Assembly: GCA_020137815.1 (NCBI GenBank)
Contig: CM035361.1
Location: forward strand, 3,844,001 to 3,908,000
Source: Hormiphora californensis
Lineage: Eukaryota; Animalia; Ctenophora
Direction: 5' to 3'
Length of the DNA: 64,000 bases
The notes beneath the pieces are model-generated. The model was not told where the DNA came from. It made no database searches and saw only the letters and a program-made list of their open reading frames with translations. This document shows positions 10,186 through 51,000 of this stretch, piece by piece; the stretch's first letter is position 1, and each line of letters starts with the position of its first letter. Position numbers and translations under genes: made by a program.

Positions 10186-12642
10186 CTCCTCTCCTCTCTC
10201 TCTCCTCTTCTCTCTCTCTCCTTTCTCTCTTCTCTCCTCTCTCTCTCTCTCTCTCTGCCTTTTCTGTTTAGTGGTTGCCAGGGTATAGACACGGGTATAT
10301 CAGTATTTTGACTGAACCTCACTTTTCAGTCACCTTGTTACAATACATAACTTACAGCTGTCAACAGAGAGGCTATCGTGAACATTGTTCTTTATTAACT
10401 TGCAGCTGTAGATCTCCTTGTAACACGTCCTCCACACCTGCGATAGACGATAGTGGATCATCAAATCTGTCAGTCAGGAACCGACCGAAACAAGTAAATA
10501 ACCAATCAGAACTCATTATTTAGGTCACGTGACTGGTTATCAGCCAATCAGGGACCAGTATTTCCTGATTCGGTCGGTTCCTGCTGTCAGTTGTGCTAAG
10601 ACAACTTTTGCATTTGCCAAGCTAGACTGCGGGCCTCGCACAACAAATGTAAAGGGAGCGCGCCAGGTGTCTATGTTACCAAGGTTAGAACAAAACAAGA
10701 CTACTTTAGGTATATATTATCGCCATTTGAATAAAATATAGATCTAATTAGAACTCAGATTTCTTCTCAAGGGCTATTTTACTACAGTCGGACCCCGATA
10801 AATCATGGCCCGACTGTATTTTAATTTTTATTTACCAGGGTTAGGGAACCAGACAGTACCTCACTGTATCTCGTTCTTGGTCCCGACATGGCAGCACTGG
10901 TGTTGTTCTTTTCCGAAACCCTACAGATATAGTGCAATGTTATGATGTTAGCAGTATGAAGTGTGATAAATGGGTGATTTTGAATCTGTCCACCTCAGCT
11001 GGTGTCATGATGTTGGCAGACATAAACTTGAGCTGATCAATATTAGAACAAAGTTCCATAAATTGAATTCAATATGGACATGTTATGCCCATATATGGGT
11101 ATAATTCCACCTATATTATGCCCATATATGGGTATAATTCCTTACCTCAGGGTGAATTTGGCACACGATTTACCATCATCCGGATCGCATAAAATCTCAC
11201 CCGCATGGTCAGAATTACACCAATAGGCTGAAAGAAGACAAGAATATTATGTTAAAGAAGCTTTTGCCATGGCTCCGCAACAACTATAAATTGGTGAAAC
11301 AATTATTACATGTAGCGATCGAGTTCACCCGATCATAGCGAATGTGTGATGTCAGATGTCAGATATTGATCTGTACAAGAGCAGAGAACCTATAATAGGT
11401 ACTACTAGTATGTTCGCAAAAGGCAAGCTTCCCCTCGTCCGACCCGAAGTTGGAATCATATGGGTTTAGTTTGTCGAACCGGCAAGTTGCTAACATGTTT
11501 CAAATCTTCACTACTTCTCAAATGATCCCATACTTTCAGTCTAATCCCAAAATCCTATTAAAAATAGAGACAAAAATAACGGCACCAAACTGTGAAATGC
11601 CCTTGCATTAGTGCGAGTAGAATAAAATCAATTTTCTATCTAAAGGCCGAGTTTATAGCAAGAAAGGACTATTTTACAACGAATTCTCTGGTTAGTATGG
11701 TAACCAACTCCGTTGTCATGGTAAATCAATCGAACTCTATCGAGTTCTATCGCCAGCAACTGGATGAAACTTTATCCATTTCATTATGCACAATGCACAG
11801 GCTTTGGTTACGAAGTTACCCCTTGCCAGCGTGTGCACGCGAAGGTCGCCCGGCGACAGAGTGTGAGGTGTCTTCGATACCAAGCACAGGCTTGTGTAAC
11901 AAAAAGGGGCGTTTTTATAGCTTATTGTTCATCATAACCTGAAATAAATAATTTTCATTACTTTCACAAAGGCTCAAAGTTTGAATATCAAATTTGCCAA
12001 AACTGTGCAGGGGCAAATTGGTGCAGGGGCAAAAGTTTTAATTGATTATAATTAATTAATTAATTAGAAAATCAAAAATCCGGCTCCGTTATGACTCGTA
12101 GTTATACTACTAGAACATACATGCAAAGTTTCATTTCGAAATTTCAAACGGTGTGGCCACAGTTTGAATATCAAAGTTGCAAAAAATGTGCAGGGGCAAA
12201 CAAAATGGTGCAGGGGCAAATGTTCAGGGGAAAATTGCACAATAGCTGATCGATACGGACATTACAGGAATAGGAACTCCCTCTATCTCTTCCATCTACC
12301 AATGCATCCTCCCTCTTCCGATACGGATCTCTAATCATGTCTCTCACTGACGTTTCACGATCTCTTCCGAGATAGCTCTGACTCGTTCTACCTCCACTAC
12401 ATCTGATTTCCTCTCAATTACGTATGCGATGCCCTCATCTCGTCCTCTCTGTCTCCACTCTCCTCTCTCTCTCTCCTCTCTCTCTCCCCTCTCTTCTCCT
12501 CTCGTCTCCTCTCTCTCTCTCCCTCCTCTCTCTCTCTCTCATCTCGCTCTTCTACTCTCATCTTCCCTCTGTCCTCTCCTCTTCCCCTCCTCTCTCTCTC
12601 TCCTCTTCCTCCACTCGTTCTCTCTCTCTCTCTCTCTACTCT

Positions 12643-30953: not shown

Positions 30954-31241
30954 ATGCAACTCCCTGTCATCAGCAATGTATACACGAAACCTACATAATT
31001 CAACACACAATGCATACATATTACTAATTCTAACATTTAAATGTACAATACTCATGTGTGTTGGATTAATCCTGGATCAAAATTAAAAAAGAAATCACGT
31101 AATAATAATAACGTATTATGTATATGGCAGGAACCGACCGAATCAGGAAATGCTGGTCCCTGATTGGCTGATAACCAGTCACGTGACCTAAATAACGAGT
31201 TCTGATTGGTTGTTTACTTGTTTCGGTCGGTTCCTGGTATA

Positions 31242-31499: not shown

Positions 31500-31577
31500 A
31501 TATGGAGTTGGGACGGCAAATATTGTAAAGGAGCTCCGAGCTGTCATGCTAATGCTCTGAGAGTAAAGTCGAAGGTT

Positions 31578-32519
31578 TGTTTGTTTGTTTGTTTGTCACT
31601 AAACCATGGGATACGCTCAGCAAACCTCCATACCAACCCGGGTATGTGGTAACTATGGCGCTGAGTCCCTTTCTCTCCCCTGGGAGAGAAAGAGACTCAT
31701 GGTTTAAATTTCTGGAACATTCGAGAGGATCTTGGTCCGTTAGGTAACGTTTTGCCTTTGAGGGGGTCTTGGTCGGGTAGGTAACATTTTGCCTTTGAGA
31801 GGGTCTTGGTCTTGAAAATAGGTAACGTTTTGCCTTTGAGAAGGTCTTGGTCGGGTAGGTAACGTTTTGCCTTTGAGAGGGTCTTGGTCTGGTTTGATGT
31901 TTATCGTATTTGTTGGTCTGTCTGGGGCACACTCTCAAGCTATGTCTTGTCTTACTCTTAATTATTGAATAGTCAATTACATTCACAATATCAACTGTAC
32001 ACAATAAATGAACAAACAATACGGACAGGTGAACTTACGACCTTGATGAATGATTGGTACCGTGATGTTGTTGGTGATGAGATGAGAGGTGTAAACATTT
32101 CCAATGGTGACAAAGAACGAAAACGATCAAACACAAACAATGGGTTGGGCAGATTGTAGCACCACTAGAGTGTAAAATGTTCTAGAAGACGATTCGGATG
32201 AGATAGATAATAACATTTGTTAGTTGTTACACGCGATAAGCGACTTAGTGCACCAAAACACAAGGATTGTCTCTGTAGTGTGGTGTTTTGCAATGTCCGC
32301 TATATTGGGAGAGGTGGGTGGGGGAGGGCGGGTGGGGGTGGGGCGGGGGGTAATATTGGACAAAAATGTTGCTGTAATTTAGTAATGAGACCAGGCCAGG
32401 CCCGAGAGACAGTTCAGTGGTAACTGGGGGGTCATGTGTGATGGAAATGAGAACTAGCCCTTTTTAGTGTCTGAGACAAGCAAAAGTGAAACGAAATGCA
32501 ACGTAACGAACGAGTAATC
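31578..32519 (-). mobile_element. Non-coding (AAAC)n-tailed retroposon (SINE-like), copy 1, uninterrupted
   Basis: 14-bp TSD TAAAGTCGAAGGTT (31564-31577, 32520-32533), 3' (AAAC)n tail on the minus strand, internal ~35-40-bp tandem repeats. Near-identical to 38190-38654 + 44089-44650. Confidence 0.8.
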
Positions 32520-36000: not shown

Positions 36001-39000
36001 AAAACTGTGGCCTCCATCGTGTACGCAAAAAAGTGGTACAATCAAGGTCGTTAGTCACGCTAAAAACGGACATTTTGTCTAAAATACGACCATCTGTAGC
36101 GCAAAAACCGTAACTCCGATTTGCATGAAATTTTGAACGTGTGCTCTAGGCGTCAAGGCAACACGAACTACCAAGCGGCATGTTCGTAGTACAACGGGAA
36201 GGTTGTCTAAAATAAAGTTGAAATTGCCGATTTCAGACAATAAGTATAGTAGCGCTGTCAGAATTTTCAAAAATTTTCAAAAAAAAATTTTCCGCAATTT
36301 CGATTTTCCTTTTACTGGGAGGAAAGATGCTTGTTAGAGGGAAATTTTGGGGGAAATTATGGTTGGGGGAAGGGAGGATTGGGCCCCGGGCGCTTGCCAG
36401 CGCTATGACAGCTCCATATAATAGGCTTGGGTAGTCTCAAGAACGCTTTTCACCATGAACTATTATAGCGTAGACCTTACTAGAGATAAATTTGGTTTTG
36501 AAATGAGTGTGTGATCAAAAAAGAAAGGTACGGGTAGGAATAGAAAGATAAGAATAGCTATTTTTGCATTTACTCATAAAAACAATCGCTAAATCAATAT
36601 CGTTTTTTCACAATTCTCCTTGGTCTTTTAGTCGTCGTTATTGTCTTCATTATTGTTGTGTATCGACGCCATCTCAATGTTTTCCGTTACTTCTTTCCTC
36701 GCCAGAGTGAAGGAAAGGACCCTTCTCACTGCATCCCACCCTAGTCCCGCCCACTTCTCTACCTTTCCATAGACACTATCACTATACAGGAGGGGGTTGA
36801 TGATGGAGTTGATGGGGAGGACGATAACTGATAGAGCCCCATAGTACGGTGTAGCATCCACCAACTCCCCCATGTGTAGGCCGGATATTACCATGACAGG
36901 CAGCCAGCAAAGCATATCTGTACCTGTAAATGGGAATATAATAATAAAGGCAGCGGATGACGGGGGGGGGGGGGGAATAGATCGCCCGAATGGATCGCCC
37001 GAAAGATATATTTCGTACTTTCACCAGTGTGGTGAAACGTATTGCGCAGATGAATCTTTTGGGCGATCTATTCGGGCTCTCGTTTCAAGCCTCCGTAATC
37101 CCCCGTGTCAGGGTGCTCAGATGGGGCCCGCGGCGCAAGACTGATTCTGATTCACAACTCATCTCCCATCTTTGGTTCATCTGTCAATTACTATCATGTA
37201 CCAATAATTAAACAGTCAATCCTCCACTTGACTTCTTGGTTACCCGAGGGTCGACTGTTTGCCCAGGACAAAATGAAAATCCAATTGTTAACACAAAATT
37301 AAATTAAATTTTCAAACAAACATATTCATAACGCAACAAGGTCAGCAGGGTAAGTAATGCTGAAAGACTGCTTCTGCGTGAGAAGCTAGCAGTAGCACTA
37401 AACTAAATTCAATATTCATAAACAGCTGCTCCATATATGCTCGGGTAGTCTCCTGAGTCAAGAACGGGTAGTCTCTTGAGTCAAGAACGGGTAGTCTCTT
37501 GAGTCAAGAACGGGTAGTCTCTTGAGTCAAGAACGGGTAGTCTCCTGAGTCAAGAACGCTTTTTACCGTGAACTATTATACTCAACATAGTGTAGACCTT
37601 AGTAGAGATACTGCTTAGTAGAGATACTGCTTAGTAGAGATACTGCTTAGTAGAGATACTGCTTAGTAGAGAAACTGCTTAGTAGAGAAACTGCTTAGTA
37701 GAGATACTGCTTAGTAGAGATACTGCTTAGTAGAGATACTGCTTAGTAGAGATACTGCTTAGTAGAGATACTGCTTAGTAGAGATACTGCTTAGTAGAGA
37801 TACTGCTTAGTAGAGATACTGCTTAGTAGAGATACTGCTTAGTATAAAAAAATCGCTAAATCAATATCGTTTTTTCACAATTTTCCTTGGTCATTTAGTT
37901 TTCGTTATTGTTGTGTATCGACGCCATCTCAATGTTTTCCGTTACTTCTTTCCTCGCCAGTATGAAGGAAAGGACCCTTCTCACTACATCCCACCCTAGT
38001 CCCGCCCACTTCTCCACCTTCCCATATACACTATCACTATACAGTAGAGGGTTGATGATGGAGTTGATGGGGAGGACGATAACTGATAGAGCCCCATAGT
38101 ACGGTGTTGCATCCACCAACTCCCCCATGTGTAGGCCGGATATTACCATGACAGGCAGCCAGCAAAGCATATCTGTACCTGTAAATGGGTTTGTTTGTTT
38201 GTTTGTTTGTCACTAAACCATGGGATACGCTCAGCAAACCTCCATACCAACCCGGGTATGTGGTGACTATGGCGCTGAGTCCCTTTCTCTCCCCTCGGAG
38301 AGAAAGAGACTCATGGTTTAAATTTCTGGAACATTCGAGAGGATCTTGGTCCGTTAGGTAACGTTTTGCCTTTGAGGGGGTCTTGGTCGGGTAGGTAACA
38401 TTTTGCCTTTGAGAGGGTCTTGGTCTTGAAAATAGGTAACATTTTGCCTTTGAGAGGGTCTTGGTCGGGTAGGTAACGTTTTGCCTTTGAGAGGGTCTTG
38501 GTCTTGATAATAGGTAACGTTTTGCCTTTGAGAGGGTCTTGGTCTGGTTTGATATTTATCGTATTTGTTGGTCTGTCTGGGGCACACTCTCAAGCTATGT
38601 CTTGTCTTACTCTTAATTATTGAATAGTCAATTACATTCACAATATCAACTGTAATATTCAAACTTATATCCTGCCCATATTCTACAGGGACAGCAGAGC
38701 TTTACAGATGCTGCCACTGGAGGAAACTCAGAGCAGTTAACTAACTCTTAACCCAAATATAGAGACTCAAACAAAAAAACGGTGGAAAAATCCAAATTAT
38801 CCGGCTCACATAAGTGGAAAACAGATTAGGCTCATAACAGACCAAAATAGAAAAAACTCGAAAAAAGGCCACAGGATATATGTCACCACTGTCACTTCAT
38901 CACTCCAAATATAGACACAGATCAAATGTTCAGACAACAGATTCTGAACAACTGGATAACTGAAAATCGGAATAAAATTACACACTCGTGCTTCACTCAT

Positions 39001-42000
39001 GCTGCAAACCCATCGAATAAAGATCAGTTAAAAACTTGTCACGAGGTAAGATACAGACCTAAGTACAATACTTACGCTAGACAGTACAGCGGGATGGGAG
39101 GAGTAGGTACCGAGAAAAGATGTAGGCTGGAAAAAGGAAAAACAACCGAAACTAGCCTGATCCAAAGGCATCCACAAACAATCTTGTCTTTAACCCCGTT
39201 TTGAAAGATTCCACAGCAGGCCGAGATCGCAACTCAAGGGGGAGTGCATTCCACAGATCTGGCAGGAGAACAGATGGTCTCCTTTTCCTCAGTTTAGAAT
39301 TTGCATTAATGCTCGACAGCTTCGGGTACTGGAGCTTATAAGGGTCTGGAACAGCAGTCGATCTGGTACGGCAAGTAACATCAACGATATCTGTAGGTAT
39401 TTGCTCAATGAGGTAATCTGGAGCACTTCCATGTACAATCTTATAGGCCATGAGACAGGCCTTAAAGATCACCCGTTGCTCCACAGGGAGAATGTGGGTT
39501 TCTCTCATGTAAGGGAGGTAGTCCTCTTGATGACCGTGGAGCCCATAGATAAATCTTATACAAGAGTTGAGCACTTTCTGTAACCGAGAGATGAGCTTCA
39601 TTGGCAAACCTCCGTAGAGGACATTGCAGTAATCCAAGCGAGATATAACCAGCTGCTTAACAAGAAGGATTCTGGTAGAGAAGTCCAGGCATCGGTGGAC
39701 TTGCCATAAATTCCTCAGTAGCATTCCACAGTTTCTTCTGACACTGTTCACCTGACGTTCCAATGTCAGGTTCTCATCCATATAAATACCCAGAGTCTTT
39801 CCGGTAGTACCTGTGAAGTCAACTGGGTAGATATCTGCATCCCCAAACCTAATACAGGGCTCAAAAGCCAGCTTGTCAATGGCACTGCTCTTCCCTAGAA
39901 GAAGGAGCTCCGTCTTCGACTCATTACACTTCAGCCAATGCTGAACCATCCAAGTCTTGATCTGATCAAGACACTCTTCAACTTTCCTCCTCGTGATACT
40001 CCATCCACTTTCATCAAGAGGGACTAGACTCACATAGATTTGAGAGTCATCCGCATAGAGTTTGATTTTGAGTCCATACTTGTGTACCAGATCCTGTAGT
40101 TCCTCAACATATAAAAGAAACAAAACCGGTCCGAGAAGGGACCCTTGTGGCACTCCACAAATCAAGTAGATAATCTTCGATAGTTCTCCTCTAACGTTGA
40201 CTCTGAAGTTCCTCAGTCCAAGATAGCTAGTAAACCACTTGAGTGCTGTTCCTCTTATTCCAAATCTCCTTCTCAATACATCCACAAGTTTAGCATGGTC
40301 AACCGTGTCGAACGCTGCACTCATGTCCAAAAGGAGTAGAGCTACAACATTTCCCTTATCCATCTCCTGCAGTAGATCATCAAACATCCCCATGAGTAGA
40401 GTTTCACAGGAATGACCAACTCTATATCCTGACTGGTGAGAGTTGAGTAGGTCATTTTCATTCAGAGCCTGATTCAGTTGATCAAGGACAACTTTCTCTA
40501 GAACCTTAGAGACAAAGGGAAGGTTAGACACAGGACGGTAGTTGGAAAGGCTATCACGATCACCATAGGGGTTCTTGATGGTTGGAAAAACCAGTGCTTG
40601 CTGGAACAATTCTGGAACAATACCTTGACGGATAGACGAATTGATAATCTTAGTAAAGAGTGGAGCAAAAACTTCCACGCACTCTTTGATCAACCATGTC
40701 GGTATAAGATCAAGATCACACGTTTTATCCCGACATATTCTTAATGATCCTCTTCATCTCATCCTCAGAGACTTCCCTGAATTCCTCAAGAATACAATCC
40801 TTATCCAGGTCCACAAGAGAGTCCACATCCTCCGCAGGAAAGTCCACATCTGCCCTCACTGAGTTCCTGATTTTTTCCACTTTTCCAGTAAAGAAATCCG
40901 CAAAATCCTCGGCCAGTTTACGATCACAATCCACATCCGGCAACAACACCTCACTGTTTCCAAGTAGTCGATTTAGTTTCCTCTGTAACGCTTTGGAATC
41001 CCCTTTTGATTCTTCAAGATCTTCTTTCAGATAGTTAGTCCTCGCTTCCTTATCAACTCTACTAAACATCTTCTTCATCACGTTATACTGCATCTTCGTA
41101 ACAGGCGTCTTCTTGCTTCTCCAAGTCCTCTCCGCAGTCCGACGTCTTCTTAGCGCATCCCTGACATCATCATTGTCTCTCCACGGGCGAACCTTTTTCA
41201 CTTTCTTTCTTCTCTTCAACGGGACAAAACTATCTACTAACTCCTTCATTTCTCTTTCATAGATCTCAAACAAATCATCTGGGGAATCCAAATCAAACCG
41301 TCCTTCAAGGCCACTTCCTCTGAGGGCTTTCATGAACAATACCGGGTCCACTGATTTAAAGTCTCTGTAGGTGTTAACTCGATCCCGTTGCTGTAGGTTT
41401 CCAACCTTAGTCTCCAGTACGACTTCACTCAGAACAAGAAAATGGTCAGACTCTGTTCCCTCAGGATGTATTTCCACAGATTTAACTTTCTCCTCTACCT
41501 CCTTTGGACATATAACCAGGTCAAGAGTACCTCCACGGTTGTGGGTTGGTTGCCTGGGGACAAGCTGAGAAAACTCATGTGAGTCCAGGAGTTCAGCAAG
41601 CTTCTTAGTGTAGAAGTTGTCCCTATCCTGCCATTGAAAGTTAAAGTCTCCCATAAGACCAGTCTTCAATACTAGCTCTGAGAGATAGTCTGTGAATTCC
41701 TCTAGGAACTTCGCTTCAGTGAACCTAGCTTTACCAGTATAGGGCGGTCTGTAAACATTACATATCCGAGTAAGGTCCATTCCATTACCAATTAAAATCT
41801 CCTGAATCTGGAACGATTTAAATTTCCTCACTGGTGGTAGTTTCATCTTAACTCCATCCCTGTAGAGTATCCCAATACCGCCTCCTGCCCTCTCCGCCCT
41901 AGGGGATGAGAAAATATTCCAGCCATAGTCTCTTATCTCCTGAAGTTTCGCGGTATCACTAGTCTTCAAGTAGGTTTCCTGAATCAGACAGATATCACAT

Positions 42001-45000
42001 TCCATGTCTTCAAGATGCGCTATAACCCCAGACGTTTTATTCATTATCGAGTGCACATTTAGTGTGCCAACACGCCACGTGTTCCTCCCACGCCCTCGTC
42101 AGATAAGCGTTTTTTCTCTCCTTACTGACACCACTTGTGTTTTCCATCAGTCTTCCTCGAGCATTAACATAATGCGGACACAAGTTACTTGATGCTGGAT
42201 GGGATTTCGCATACTTCTTGTCATCCTTACTACCTCCAACATCACAGTTTACACACTTCATCCGATTGAGTTCATTCCCACTCTTCGCCCTACATTGTCT
42301 GGTGTCATGATCTCCTGCACAGAAGGCACAGGTGGCGCTTTTATCTTTACTCGGACAATAGACAGATCCAGCTACGTGTCCATAACGCTGGCAGTGGAAA
42401 CACTGAGTAACGTAGAATCTGTCCTTCACAATGTGCTGTCTTAACTTCAGGAAAATCCTATCTCGATTATCAGCAATGGCTTCTCGTATATCAGGTGTAA
42501 CCTTGAGCACCGCATACCTCCCAGCAGTGTTAACATGAATGACACTGACAGCCCACTATGTGGTCAAAACGCGCATTTGTCCGATAGGAATCCTCCGTTT
42601 TTAGGGGTTTTGCGCGATTTTGTTAGGCACTTTCAGGGAGCGTGCACGCTTGCGTGTGCTGTCAAACACCCTGGAAATTGTGTAGCAGTTGTAGGTAATC
42701 GTCTAAAGATCATTTTGCTACCCATAACTTGGCTGAAAGTGCGGCAGGTTTTGGACAGCACGGCATCAAAGTTCGTCCTATAGCCCAAAAACTGGCTTCT
42801 GTTCAAAGCGCAACCTAAACTTTGGTATCAAAAGAAAGCTAGGGGGCTAGAGATTACTATGCAACCTTTCCATTGCAACCGGTCCGATGCGGTCATGTAT
42901 TAAATGCGACATTTATACTAAAAAAGCACTTGTCAGCGCTGGTTTTACACGTAAAAACGCGCAACGAGGTTGGATCTTGGTCAAAATTGAGCCTCTACTG
43001 CGCGTTTTCTATCAAAATCACTAGATCTCGCGAGCCTATCGGACATGACCACATAGTGCAGCCTGCCCAGACTCATATAGCCTCTTCACCACTTCATTCT
43101 TATCACTCAAGATGGCGTCCAATAGCACCTCTTTGTTCAACAGGTCATGGTCCAGATCGGAAATCAATACCCGAGGATCCATCTTCTTCTGCTTCTCAAC
43201 AAACGGAGTAACATTCAGAAACGGGGACAGCACTTTCTCTGCTTCTTTGAGGTCGTCATCAGTTGCAAAAAACAACTGAGTGCCCTTCCTGTTCACCGAA
43301 GTGTCCAAGACGGGGATGTTCTTCAGAGCTTTCACGACCTTCGGTTTCACTACCATTTTCCACTTCTCCTCACACATTGGTGTCACTCCTTCCTCATTGC
43401 TGTCTTTGATGCTCATATACCGTTTCACAGGGGTAGCTGGTGCAGCTTTCTTCTCCTGCTGACCAGAACTACACGTTACTTCACTCTCCTCTCGGTTCTT
43501 CTTCAATATCTCATTGACTACTGGGGCCATGAGTCCAGGTAGGCTATCCATCAACTCTTGCTTCAGTTTTGAGAAACCATCCTTCAGATCATCACTTGAA
43601 ATCGAGACTCCAGAATCTGACGATGGTGTAGGACACCGGGAACTGTCCGGAAGCATCCGGTAACACATAATCAACATCTGCCAAAGATCCTTCTTCGTAG
43701 GTCCACCTGGAGCATCCATAGGCTCACCCGGGGTACCAGCATCCTCCTCCAATTTCTTCCACACTGTACTGCCTTTACATTTGTCAGAGAAGCTCGTGAC
43801 AAGGAGCTTACCTTCGAAGTCCTTCTTCGTTCCACTTTCATACTGGGGTGCCAATCCCGACATTCTATCCTGTAACAGTGGCGCGAGGATCCGATCCACC
43901 AAGATTTGGCTTCCTGGATTTGGCTCAACGAGGTCTCCCAAGATCTGCCCAACTTAGAAAGAGACAGGAACACCAGGCTTGTCTTGTCTTGAAAAGAGGG
44001 GGATTGAGCAGAAGTCTTAGAAGAGTAACGAGGAGCAGTTGAACGGAACCTCAAATTAATTTGTTTAAAGTAGTGTTGAAAAGTTTGAAACTGTACACAA
44101 TAAATGAACAAACAATACGGACAGGTGAACTTACGACCTTGATGAATGATTGGTACCGTCATGTTGTTGGTGATGAGATGAGAGGTGTAAACATTTCCAA
44201 TGGTGACAAAGAACGAAAACGATCAAACACAAACAATGGGTTGGGCAGATTGTAGCACCACTAGAGTGTAAAATATTCTAGAAGACGATTCGGATGAGAT
44301 AGATAATAACATTTGTTAGTTGTTACACGCGATAAGCGACTTAGTGCACCAAAACACAAGGATTGTCTCTGTAGTGTGGTGTTTTGCAATGTCCGCTATA
44401 TTGGGAGAGGTGGGTGGGGGAGGGCGGGTGGGGGTGGGTTTGGGGGGTAATATTGGACAAAAATGTTGCTGTAATTTAGTAATGAGACCAGGCCAAGCCC
44501 GAGAGACATTTCAGTGGTAACTGGGAGGTCATGTGTGATGGAAATGAGAACTAGAGGCAGATTTGAGTTGCATTTTATTGAGGAAAACAGCCCTTTTTAG
44601 TGTATGAGACAAGCGAAAGTGAAACGAAATGCAACGTAACGAACGAGTAATGAATAGAATTCTGCTCTGTGACTTGTTAGTGCTCCTTTATCAAACACGC
44701 AATGGCAAAGTACAAAGTTTCCCAAATTTAATTAAATGCGAAATTTCAAAGTTTTGGTCGATTTTGGCCAAAATTGCTGCCCTAAACTAACTATTGGACT
44801 GTGCGTTGCCGGGGAGACTGCTCACTGGTGACTGAGAGATCATATGTTCTCGAATATTGGTATTTGAGGCGGATTTAAGTTGTATTTTAGTGAGGGGAAG
44901 AGCTCATATTGGACAAAAATGTTGCTGTAATTTAGTAATGAGACCAGGCCAAGCCCGAGAGACATTTCAGTGGTAACTGGGAGGTCATGTGTGATGGAAA

Positions 45001-48000
45001 TGAGAACTAGAGGCAGATTTGAGTTGCATTTTATTGAGGAAAACAGCCCTTTTTAGTGTATGAGACAAGCGAAAGTGAAACGAAATGCAACGTAACGAAC
45101 GAGTAATGAATAGAATTCTGCTCTGTGACTTGTTAGTGCTCCTTTATCAAACACGCAATGGCAAAGTACAAAGTTTCCCAAATTTAATTAAATGCGAAAT
45201 TTCAAAGTTTTGGTCGATTTTGGCCAAAATTGCTGCCCTAAACTAACTATTGGACTGTGCGTTGCCGGGGAGACTGCTCACTGGTGACTGAGAGATCATA
45301 TGTTCTCGAATATTGGTATTTGAGGCGGATTTAAGTTGTATTTTAGTGAGGGGAAGAGCTCATATTGGACAAAAATGTTGCTGTAATTTAGTAATGAGAC
45401 CAGGCCAAGCCCGAGAGACATTTCAGTGGTAACTGGGAGGTCATGTGTGATGGAAATGAGAACTAGAGGCAGATTTGAGTTGCATTTTATTGAGGAAAAC
45501 AGCCCTTTTTAGTGTATGAGACAAGCGAAAGTGAAACGAAATGCAACGTAACGAACGAGTCACCTGTAAATGGGAATATAATAATAAAGTGATGTGTTCG
45601 ATCTCGAATCCTTGATGTGGAGCAGGAACCGACCGAATTAAGTAAACAGCCAATCAGAACTCGTTATTTAGGCCACGTAACTGGTTATCAGCCAATCAGG
45701 GATCAGTATTTCCTGATTCGGTCGGTTCCTGATGTGGAGAGTGTGTGGTGTGAGATCGAACACATAAAATTTCTGTACCAATAATGAGACTGATTTTGCG
45801 TTGTGATTTCTTCTGTTGTCTCAGTCGGGCGATGTGATTTTGGTTCAGTACGTTGTTATTATCATCTGAGCCATCTGTTACTTTACTAACACTCCTGTTT
45901 AGCTGAAAATATTTGGAGTGGTTATAAAGTGGTTATAAAGTGGTTATAGTAGTGATATTCCAGGGCTGGGGTTCGCCTTCCGAAAATGCAAGTCGACCCA
46001 GATAATTTCAGAAACGTTATACGTACCTCTAATGCAATGATGATATAGCAGGTAGAAATGACCGCCAGACAAGCCATGTTCACCAACTGGAAAGTCAGGG
46101 AAAACACAAACTGTGGGTCGTCCGGGAGGACAAAGTACTTGAACAGACATACACCTCCGTTCCCATAGAAACCAACAAACTTGTGCATTCCCTCCAAGTT
46201 ATCGTAGTCGCTGGTGTACATTCCTTTAATGAGATTTGTGGCATACTCCCAGCTCATTGTTGACGAGGATTTGCCCTTTTTGGAGATTCTCCCATAGTAA
46301 CCTTCAATTGTGTCCAAATGTTGAGCTTTACTTTGGGGATCGCCCTACGGGCGCGCGAACATGGGGGGCGCGACGTGCCCAAAGCTTTACTAGATCTTCC
46401 CAGGAACATCTTGACTTGTTCGTCCCAAACTTGTCCACTTATGAATACATCTTCAAACCACGTGGCTAGGAATACAGGAGACGCAGCTAACACCACAGAA
46501 AGGACCATCATCACAAAGGCTAAACTGGCAGATTTCACTATGTTCCGGTCTTTTGGAGGTCTGATCCCACCCGTCACACCAACTGCCCGGGTCAGACTCA
46601 AACTGGTCATTGCGAAGACCGAGAGACATGATGCAGATGTACTGAAAATCCCTAGGAGATTACATTTCCGACTAGTTAGCCACTCGTCTTGGTGTTGACA
46701 GTAATGGTCAGATTGGAGTTGATCATAAACCGCCACTATCAGCAAGTAAACTCCGTTTAGAGTGTCCCCAAAGCTTATCAAACCGACAAGGACCCTATTT
46801 TGGAACGCTATGTCTGTTTTTGCACCTGGCAGTTGCCTAGCAACGCTCAATAGAGTCCAAATGTTCAGGCCGGTAGCGAGTGATCCAAATACAAATGCAA
46901 AACTCGTCAGTGCTAAACCCTCCAGAATGTGTTTGCTGCAATGATCATTGCACTCATCACTTCGGTCAAAACAGTCTGCAACACCATCGCATACCTGATA
47001 GAGGGGTAACAGCTTTTGCCCACATTTGAAGTGATTCAGACAGTTCCCTTCATCGCTTCCATCCCCACAATCATCCACTAGATTACAGACTTTGTCATAG
47101 GTAAGGCACCGCTGGTTAGCGCACTGAAACGTCTCCTGAACCCACCACTCTCCTTTCCGGGTCACTATTGTTAACTGGTCGCTGTCGTAGTAAGTCAGGA
47201 CTTTTTTGGGAAAGTCTGCCGGACAGGCATCGCGTTTTAGTGGTGTTCTATCAAAGGGGCAAGTGACGTTGTCTGCGCATTTATTACTGCACGCAAGGTA
47301 TACAGTATACCTCACCGTAGACGTATTTGCAGGAGACTGGATTAGACGGAAGCTTCAATTCTACTTCTTTTGTGCCAAATATTGCGGTGTTATTGAAAGG
47401 TGTACTCGTACATTTTGAGCCAGATAGGACCTCAATACTACTCAGACCAGGAAGACAGTGAAGAAGAAACTTATGCCAGCCGTTATTAACAGGATAAGGC
47501 GGTGCCAAACTACATCTTTCCGATGCCTAACACACATTTTGTTTTCGTTGCCACAAGTATCAATCCCATCACACAGAAACCCAGTTGGTATAAAATCGAA
47601 TCTATCTGTCCATCCATCTGATCCTCTGCATACCACAACATCCTCACACGAAACCGCACTGCTGTCAACAAACCTCCTCGTGGTGCCAGTTGCCGCATGT
47701 TCGGCCACCATTCCGGATCTTCATCCTCTCCGTCCACACAGTCGGTAACACCATCGCTAAGCCAGCTAATCGGAATCTTCGAGTATTCCGCCGGATTGAT
47801 TTTTCTTTTACAGACGCTTCTACTGGTCATTGAACGGCAAATTTCATCGGTTTCCGAGAGGCAGTCAGGTTTACCATCACAAATCTGATGTTTGTGGATG
47901 GTGCAGGTAGAGGTCACATCCACACAGAGGATATCCAGGTTGTCATCACAGAGACCTTGACGTAGCTCGTTACATACCATTACCTTGGCAACGGTGGACA

Positions 48001-51000
48001 TGTAACCTCCTATGGGACATGACAGGGCAATCCTATCCGGGTCGGAGCAATTTGTCTGGTCCATGAAGTCCTTACAAACAGGTATATATGTATAGGTCTC
48101 CGTTTTAAAAGGATTCAATTCCTCGGAAGTTAGTCCCACTGTGCAATCTATCGCAGCCCAGTAAAACTTTATAGTTGAACATCGCGTGAAGGGAAAGATA
48201 GGTTTCAATTCACCCTCATAAGATTGATACATTGACCCATATCGCTCCGGACTTTCACAGTACTGCTGGTTAGGATTAATTGTAAAGTCACATGAGAGTG
48301 GTTTTGGGAGATTGTCACAGGTTCTCCCAACACCGCCTACACAAACATCACCAGGGGAAATGAACCAGTCCTTTTTCATATCATTAGCACATATTACTCC
48401 ATAGTTGAATCCGTTACAGGAGTACTCATCCCTACAGTCAGTATCACAAACCCCGTCACACATCCTACTAGCTTGTTCCTTGCAAATGTTAGCGGGGATG
48501 GTACCCCTGCAGCTGTCACTCTGACACGCTCTTGATATTAGCATTATCTCGTGTTCAAATAACCCTTCTACATTACTGCTGGCTGTATTACACGGTGCCG
48601 TACCACAAGCGTGACCTTCATTGATAGCGTCAAGTTGAATTGTTTTTAGCCCGCACATTTCGTAATTGATGTCTTGAGTGCACCGGAATCCGTACAAATA
48701 CGTCGTTTTTAAAATGTTGTACTTTAAGTAGTAGCGACCCAAAGAGTTCACACACTGATACAAGTCATGAAGTTCCCTTCCTACTACAAGCTTTTCAAGG
48801 CATTTCCGTTTAAGGAATCCTCCCACCACACTGATAGGGCACTCGTCAATGTGCGTCGATATCAGACGCTTTGTTGTAGCAGGTCTTTTAGCTGCAGAGA
48901 GAGAGAGGGAGGGAGAGTATGTGGGAGGGTATCTTTAGAAATGACATTTCCGACTTTCTACTAAAGCATGGTTTATTCTAGGCTTTGATTTGTAGCAGAT
49001 CAGATAGAAAATTGTCGGGAGATTTAACCTGGGTAAAAACTATGCAAGAACCCAAACGAACCCTTTACTGTTTCGACTATAATAACAAAGGTCCAAACAG
49101 TCGCGTTGCGTCAACGCATTGTGGGGCAGAGCCATGCAATTTTTGATAAACATCCTTTTTGCTTACAGCTTTTGTGTGAGTTAATGTCCAGCACATGTCC
49201 TGCAATGTAAACTCACCGCTGGGTGTTTGCTGCGTTGGTGGTGGTTTTGTAGTTCTCTTTCTAGGTTCCGTAAGTTCTATCATATCTTGATTCTGGGCGA
49301 GCTCTGATTCCCCAATCTCTCTCATACACCAAACTTTGTCGGTCCGGGTGAATGACCAAATCACAGCGGCCGTATCTTGAAAATGTTATCATTATTGGAA
49401 AGATACACCCGATATATATATATATATGTAGTGTAGATGTAACGTGTAGATACATCTACACTTGTGCATATATGCAAAAGGGGGTACAATTGTTTCACTA
49501 CAGCAGTACTACCAAAACTATACAAACAGTACAACATGATAAAGACAAAAAGCCTAAGACAACTAACACAAGCCATATCAGGACAAACAATCTGGCATCA
49601 GCCCAACAAATCAAAGACAACAAAATCGACCCAAATTGCACACCGTGTAAGGTAAAAGAGAACTCAGAACATGTCCTCATGTTTTGCCCGGACCTCGACG
49701 AGGCAAAACATAAACTCGGACGCCTCTTATTGTGAGTAAACAATAAGAGAAAAATTATACAAATCCGAAACGAGACACTTTAACCTAAACAAACTCGCAA
49801 AACTAATAAAGAGAAGCAACCGATTCCGCTAAGATGGGGAGGAAAGGGGCTCAACAAACAAAACAAGATCGGAGGGGACGTAATACCCACAGGGGCCAAA
49901 AACCCCTGCCCGTTAACCCAAACGGGATGTACTGGCTCGCTAAACCAGAGGGTAAGTACGCAAAAATGAAAGTAACCTATGTCCAAAGGCAGCTTTCATC
50001 CTGTCCAAAGCTACATCTCTTATAAAGGGAACCCCCGTTATGAGTGAAACCCAAGACCTGTACAATAAAGTACGGGTGCAAAACTACAGCAACATGCTTT
50101 ATGATCCAGAGGTCATGGAGAAGGAAGCTCCGCCTCCTGGGGAAACGACACCTTGTGTGTGTTGTGACCTCAGGAAACGAAAGCTGACCGATCTGGGATA
50201 CATATCTATGAATCTTGATCTCACCTTCGGGTTGATGATCTGGTCACGCTGGACCATGAAGCAGCCGTGGGATTGGAAGTGGGAGGCACAAACAACAACA
50301 AATGGACACGTTATAAAATATTTTGTGGCATACACCTGGTATTTCAGTAACGGCAGCTGATCTTTGGTTTGGAGGAACAGTCCGAGCGGGCATCCATAAT
50401 GGGACACCAGACATGATCTCTTCCGTGTAGGAATGGCGATACCAACCATCACTGTCATCTGCTTCCTTGCACATCCAGGAGTTGTCAGTAGTTAGTAAAA
50501 CACGCCCATAGATGTCCTGTCAGGCGTGTGAGATATCAGTCATATACCAGGGTCTTATTAATGGGATTTTAAAATAAAACTGGTGGGTGCGCTAGTGATA
50601 ATAAAACTTCGAAATATGTATTCTGTTAGACTCTAATTTTGTTTGGAAATGGACATCGGAGTGGATATTTACTAAGCAATGCAATTCTCCTTCATAAAAC
50701 CTAGATTATATTCTGAATGAATAAAGAGATGCAATATGGGCCTTTCTACAAGCATCAATTTCATAATTGAGTGCAGTCTATACCTTTATGGCACCATAGA
50801 TTCCGTACTTTCCGTTATTGTTGGTACAGGCAATAGCAAGCAGTTTAACAGACGGAGAAAGGTCGATATAACTTGCCTTGTCCCACCTGAAGAATATTGG
50901 GTTTTAAGGGAATAGCCGGCACTGAAACCTGATCAGATATCAGGTCTCAGTGGAAAATTATAGCCGTGGCCTGAACCTGAAGACCTGAGGTTCAGGCACG

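Follow-up and report, generated by a model that had tools for sequence, protein, structure and literature searches.

How a retrotransposon comes to begin with an exon that its host adds to mRNAs, and how such a beginning survives from one insertion to the next, are the questions raised by a long interspersed nuclear element (LINE) of the ctenophore Hormiphora californensis. The element lies on the minus strand of a 64,000-nt stretch of contig CM035361.1 (GenBank assembly GCA_020137815.1, forward-strand positions 3,844,001 to 3,908,000; the whole stretch is hereafter called the window), and its 5' end is a spliced-leader (SL) exon. A preliminary description of the window had proposed that the RNA copied into this site was trans-spliced, and had named in advance four observations that would speak against it: a 43-mer differing from the leader of the species, an alignment of the adjoining untranslated region (UTR) to the SL RNA intron, relatives extending beyond the leader with an upstream promoter, and a leader confined to this one copy. 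All four were examined and none was found, and the proposal is now well supported. The observation is genuine and holds across the family, with leader-headed LINEs in at least two lineages of an animal; most probably the leader was placed on the LINE RNA by trans-splicing, and it would probably be renewed in the same way.

Identity of the leader and the 5' junction

The 43-mer at 44092-44050, which had been taken for the ctenophore SL, is present exactly as first written and equals positions 2-44 of the H. californensis leader as printed in PMC8527503. It also equals the entire exon of an SL RNA gene on another contig (L068), where the base preceding the exon is a C, so that the first G of the printed leader may derive from the cap. 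The genomic leader is 77% A+T, and a 29-nt core of it occurs once in the window and in none of 100 shuffles. According to the passage on the leader in PMC8527503, it is carried by 56% of Iso-Seq reads of H. californensis, and 718 genomic copies exist in this species and 491 in M. leidyi, the origin of which is left unexplained in that passage.

Its assignment as a ctenophore SL draws on this identity, on its presence on diverse mRNAs and on an SL RNA gene with a donor. Metagenome contigs scanned for the exact last 25 nt of the leader yielded 107 stretches from 106 loci; viral contigs yielded no match. At 93 of these loci the leader stands at a contig end or close to it, ahead of a reading frame of ordinary appearance (Ras, ribosomal proteins, innexin, collagen), with no reverse transcriptase (RT) or endonuclease family match at E 1e-8 in any of the 93. 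L068 is an SL RNA gene array with the 43-nt exon, a GTAAG donor and a 778-bp tandem repeat unit that includes 5S rRNA; the SL RNA folds better than 198 of 200 shuffles (z -2.76), and stem-loops as well as a U-rich Sm-like stretch are seen in the gene (L068:693-815 and 263-381). Since the sequence upstream of this gene differs from that in the DNA run X1, it probably belongs to a related species.

The 7-bp target-site duplication (TSD) and the empty-site paralog reported earlier were both confirmed (Table 1), the empty site holding TACAGTT once between the same 20 nt that flank the LINE insertion on either side. As AGTT is common to the start of the leader and the end of the 5' repeat, the junction can be read either as a 7-bp TSD followed by a leader lacking 4 nt, or as a whole leader joined through a 4-nt microhomology with a TSD of 3 bp. 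In a contig of run X5 (record 13, window 44067-44134), the host repeat meets the leader 5' end at this very position, across three gap letters, and the contig may represent the same insertion in another animal. Downstream of the leader, the 5' UTR had been given as about 108 nt; its actual length to the first ATG is 186 nt.

Leader-headed relatives in other loci

The other 12 of the 106 loci are apparent retroelement heads. Five of them (L049, L029, L020, L032 and L066) show 30-70% identity to the window LINE in the first part of open reading frame 1 (ORF1) and, where the RT is present, 64-84% identity there, while L098 and L105 are close by their UTRs to L032 and L020. Both ORFs are open behind the leader in L049, L029 and L032. 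In a second group, L063 carries an endonuclease and an unrelated ORF1, with no match to the L049 ORF1 in a tblastn comparison, and L054, L096, L101 and L009 share with it a short UTR motif that, beyond the eight loci compared, was seen in none of the other 98. The latter four are probable, not proven, LINE heads, since the L009 protein falls only among unnamed ctenophore clusters of the protein atlas.

The shared motif of the second group lies within the first 60 nt after the leader and is followed in four of the five loci by a GCCC...GGGC stem; it is a candidate promoter or RNA signal, and the ORF1 proteins behind it are mostly unalike. The UTRs of three of these loci begin with TTT(C/T)AG, one letter off the last six bases of the leader itself.

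The leader is thus present on relatives in other loci and in DNA-run contigs, and these relatives run from the UTR into the leader rather than into an upstream promoter. In two assemblies that look genomic from their content (prefixes Ga0233438 and ERZ1046148), there were 11 leader matches, comprising seven relatives of the window LINE, three probable retroelements of the second group and one SL gene, with no retrocopies of ordinary genes; ten of the 11 thus count as retroelement 5' ends, seven by homology and three by the UTR motif shared with L063. Moreover, an RT tree of 45 rows was built from the window LINE, three loci and 41 homologs out of the 120 listed. Its four leader-headed rows are distributed over both halves of a clade of 35 rows (support 100/99).

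Contigs from four DNA runs, out of 22 sequencing runs, were additionally aligned to 43560-44260, covering 31 of the 2087 pieces and 22 of the 168 loose ends; the RNA runs X15-X20 contain 5-13% of the sequence words. In run X1, an unbranched contig of 768 nt (record 1) leads from ORF1 through the UTR into 19 nt of the leader, at a depth of 269 compared with 31-37 for two long flank contigs, which hints at several near-identical LINE copies, depth not being a copy number. In run X5 (record 12) the UTR accounts for all eight differences, 19 leader nt being unchanged, and in organism B (X9, records 30 and 31) a diverged UTR is joined to the leader. Both X1 and X9 show a loose end at 44029, which marks a sister family with the same first 21 UTR bases.

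Origin and upkeep of the leader

That the leader derives from a trans-spliced RNA is all but certain from joints that lie exactly at the exon end, without donor or intron. The leader could instead come from a captured SL RNA gene fragment, or from a switch of template to SL RNA while the element was reverse-transcribed, and this rival could draw on the window UTR beginning with GT and sharing a 9-mer with the SL intron, as well as on the 5' chimeras with small RNAs that LINE-1 is described as making in the part of PMC13174262 concerned. We regard it as largely refuted and extremely improbable: the GTAAG donor stands at the start of none of 13 UTRs, the upstream sequence of the SL gene is found in no copy, and the junction lies exactly at the exon end in 13 of 13 copies, which is not expected from template switching. 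Aligned to the first 95 nt after the donor (of the L068 intron, probably from a related species' gene), the window UTR gave p=0.07 and the other twelve p>=0.15, with 500 shuffles each. A captured SL gene fragment, with neither donor, intron alignment nor gene flank, was accordingly rejected.

The upkeep of the leader can be judged from its positions 1-18, which the 25-nt scan pattern does not fix and which were assessed in 11 loci. All 11 end in clean 5' breaks, with 0, 1, 1, 1, 2, 2, 2, 3, 5, 8 and 15 nt lost, and in the 158 nt compared, identity never resumes beyond a substitution; the first 60 UTR nt of the same elements show 37-95% identity. Including the window, all 43 leader nt are kept in two of 12 copies (the window and L049), and at such a rate an inherited leader would erode. 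Leaders that are identical yet clipped at the 5' end by 0-15 nt, next to UTRs that diverge, favour renewal by trans-splicing; their constancy excludes neutral inheritance, though not strict selection on a promoter.

From this constancy and clipping, we consider it fairly probable that the leader is renewed in each copying round by trans-splicing at the genomic leader's own AG. A precursor RNA would begin upstream of the genomic leader, through read-through or from an internal promoter slightly upstream. The AT-rich genomic leader would then act as the end of the outron and its terminal AG as the acceptor, so that a fresh capped leader substitutes for it base for base. Target-primed reverse transcription would proceed to or near the cap, losing 0-15 nt, and the end would be joined via microhomology; with the AG retained in the new copy, the cycle could repeat without erosion of the 5' end. 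Under such a renewal cycle, the window copy would be one of its broken products.

Two other accounts accept the trans-spliced origin and deny the renewal. The leader might have been gained once or a few times and be inherited ever since, an internal promoter in the leader or UTR starting transcription at the first leader base, so that only whole-leader copies propagate and selection holds the sequence identical. Internal promoters are the rule for many LINEs (e.g., Pr77 of L1Tc), and in Ascaris the SL exon itself is a promoter element, both of which lend this account some substance. A promoter role has also been suggested for the dinoflagellate leader DinoSL in the section consulted of PMC12014239, conserved UTR motifs are present here, and two of 12 copies retain all 43 nt. 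This account is nevertheless unlikely in our judgement, as the leader would have to stay perfectly conserved across unrelated ORF1 types next to a UTR whose identity has drifted to near background, and the 5' bases missing from ten of 12 copies could not be recovered by a promoter. Alternatively, the leader-headed copies could all be dead ends, produced by source elements with their own upstream promoter and outron whose RNA is trans-spliced like any mRNA; this is how flatworm loci are read in passing in PMC12582326, the window copy is indeed broken, and rare source loci could escape short contigs. Against this stands that copying through RNA leaves behind any promoter upstream of the acceptor, so that the many diverged families could not arise, and that three loci combine the leader with two open ORFs. 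Furthermore, the X1 contig is unbranched at the UTR-leader junction, and among the joints listed for the four DNA runs, within the loose ends covered, none occurs there. We therefore hold the dead-end account to be quite improbable.

Several observations weigh against renewal at the terminal AG. The scan required an exact 25-mer, so that drifted or leaderless families could not appear, and the 5' end is known for four of the 35 rows of the RT clade. The flank beyond the leader measures only 5 nt in L049, 6 nt in L032 and 1 nt in L096, and the sole candidate transcript is L009, a member of the second group. The conserved UTR motifs are compatible with an internal promoter. In animals GAG serves poorly as a 3' splice site, and no pyrimidine tract precedes the leader's terminal AG. 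The TTT(C/T)AG start of three of the five second-group UTRs is a stronger acceptor 6 nt downstream, the use of which would lose its own sequence; this objection is softened by the ordinary mRNAs, 25 of 93 of which retain a YAG no more than 7 nt from the leader, showing that downstream sites are often bypassed. Finally, a tandem or relic leader was found in none of the 106 loci, although perfect replacement would leave no trace: there is no sign of re-splicing at the leader's first AG, whereas re-splicing at its last AG would be markless.

Within the UTR, a TGTT..YAGG block ahead of the ORF1 ATG (window 43864-43880) is kept across the otherwise diverged UTRs of the relatives, and might act as an additional acceptor for ORF1 mRNA. 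A YAG before this ATG was no better than in shuffles in eight of eight cases (p 0.23-0.43), and no UTR-skipping joint occurred among the joints listed for the DNA-run contigs. No support was obtained for decayed second leaders at the start of the UTRs (p 0.10 or more in 13 of 13).

How the 5' end of a LINE is defined and kept is a standing problem, to which internal promoters and self-cleaving ribozymes are known solutions. If the leader is renewed as proposed, host trans-splicing would be a third route to a LINE 5' end, one that restores the bases lost at each insertion. More tentatively, and extrapolating from the sequences at hand, at least two unrelated ctenophore LINE lineages may have abandoned a promoter-defined 5' end altogether; the leader end of each insertion would be a trans-splice acceptor, at which the spliceosome could turn any passing transcript into a capped, unit-length and self-repairing template, and LINE heads might then make up most of the hundreds of genomic 'leader' copies in ctenophores, offering a reading of those counted in H. 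californensis and M. leidyi. Such copies would also scatter leader-like exons and acceptors in introns and thereby mislead gene annotation.

SLACS, CRE, CZAR and NeSL, which likewise place leader sequence beside a non-LTR (long terminal repeat) element, insert into SL genes and use a restriction-like endonuclease situated after the RT. The distinction from these elements drawn in the preliminary description is borne out, since the empty site of the window LINE lies in a leaderless non-coding retroposon within an intron, the leader is inside the duplication, and the endonuclease is of the apurinic/apyrimidinic (APE) type and precedes the RT. Likenesses exist in parasitic flatworms, for which the portion of PMC12582326 seen describes partial leaders beside LTR and LINE elements at 597 loci and interprets them as trans-spliced RNAs that became integrated, and in S. 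mansoni, with six transposable element (TE) genes bearing leader sequence according to an excerpt of PMC5832876. In that portion, the flatworm loci were set aside during filtering, with no families, junctions or life cycle described, whereas the ctenophore LINEs carry a near-complete leader at the exact 5' end of intact two-ORF families. In dinoflagellate retrogenes, renewed transcription of a retroposed leader is followed by a second trans-splicing within the old leader (section consulted of PMC12014239), a re-splicing of genomic leader copies in which the cargo is a host gene and tandem relics remain because the AG used is internal; here an autonomous element is the cargo, and the lack of relics is as expected under terminal-AG use. 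Ribozymes that resemble those of hepatitis delta virus (HDV) and stand at the 5' end of L1Tc/ingi and also of further retroelements also cut a unit-length RNA from a longer co-transcript, as outlined in the extract of PMC4035085, while in the ctenophore LINEs the host spliceosome would do the cutting and a cap would be added. An Rfam search returned nothing in the window, and no ribozyme match in the window or six loci. TE RNAs are also SL trans-splicing substrates in Hydra, where about 30% of TE Iso-Seq reads carry the leader (PMC12220107), and in C. elegans, where the full-length Cer1 RNA skips its SL1 site (PMC3315495), and the passages concerned mention no genomic leader-headed families. 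Across the literature surveyed, mainly titles and the beginnings of abstracts, neither leader-headed ctenophore LINEs nor a LINE life cycle with the leader as a permanent component was encountered, and term searches of PMC7986045, PMC12460157, PMC4233971, PMC12221973 and PMC11184263 returned nothing relevant in the text retrieved.

Anatomy of the element and its surroundings

Features of the window LINE and of its host are given in Table 1. The element shows an N-terminal APE and an RT in ORF2 (PF03372, E 5.5e-8; PF00078, E 6.2e-20), an ORF1 upstream, a simple-repeat 3' end and a TSD, and no LTRs; the 3' ends of L049 and L032 are (ATT)n. From this architecture we presume a likeness to the CR1/L2 group, the 120 listed RT homologs carrying no clade names and the RT tree no named CR1/L2 references. 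The copy had been called a full-length LINE, which holds for its length and not for its intactness, as it is broken in ORF1 by an insert and in ORF2 by a frame change. Its split ORF1 shows 70% and 85% identity to the intact 431-aa ORF1 of L049. The insert, which we take to be a Transib-like DNA transposon, occurs once in the window, and its 5-bp duplication is GC-rich. The ORF2 frame shift may be genuine or an assembly error, a database protein (P0002) with 98% identity over the RT part continuing in a single unbroken frame across the 40730 region; whichever is the case, the ORF1 insert makes the window copy incapable of being an autonomous source.

Table 1 Coordinates of the LINE, its parts and the host retroposon in the window
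Feature	Position	Strand	Remarks
LINE, whole element	44095-38648	minus	APE+RT type, TACAGTT repeat at each end
5' target-site duplication TACAGTT	44089-44095	minus	last 4 nt are leader nt 1-4; single copy at empty site 31993-31999
3' target-site duplication TACAGTT	38648-38654	minus	
Spliced-leader exon, complete 43 nt, AG at end	44050-44092	minus	equals published leader nt 2-44 and the SL RNA gene exon of L068
5' UTR, 186 nt	43864-44049	minus	without GTAAG donor; conserved TGTT..YAGG block ahead of ATG
ORF1, cysteine/histidine knuckles near C-terminus, split by insert	42037-43863	minus	first ATG 43863
ORF2, APE endonuclease then reverse transcriptase	39152-42044	minus	frame change near 40730
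3' UTR	38655-39151	minus	single ATT unit at end
Non-coding insert in ORF1, 505 bp	42554-43058		13-bp terminal inverted repeats starting CAC; 5-bp target duplication GGCTG
Host non-coding retroposon holding the LINE	38190-45561	minus	(CAAA)n tail; 13-bp target duplication CCCATTTACAGGT
Paralog of host retroposon without the LINE	31574-32518	minus	contains empty site 31993-31999

The LINE is nested in the host retroposon, which in turn lies in an LDLa/seven-transmembrane (7TM) receptor gene ahead of its last-helices exon, all three on the minus strand. The sense orientation of the LINE to both, noted earlier, thus stands; the suggestion that the receptor pre-mRNA and the host retroposon could supply it with transcripts has little force, because the window copy is broken in both ORFs.

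The 13-bp target duplication of the host retroposon (38177-38189 and 45562-45574) copies the splice acceptor of the receptor's last-helices exon, so that this exon retains an intact acceptor behind the insertion. The 5' part of the retroposon (44450-45560) is a tandem repeat with a period of 456 bp and 100% identity, of which the empty paralog has one unit. In the receptor gene, the frame shifts at least twice within a long exon-like region (45925-48658), which may reflect decay, unrecognised introns or assembly error, and the last-helices exon is duplicated at 93% identity (36576-36934). Additionally, a 110-bp repeat occurs four times in the window (45623-45731, 31127-31236, 10475-10587 and 2357-2431), and three leader-headed mRNA contigs (L003, L007 and L021) carry it in their 3' part.

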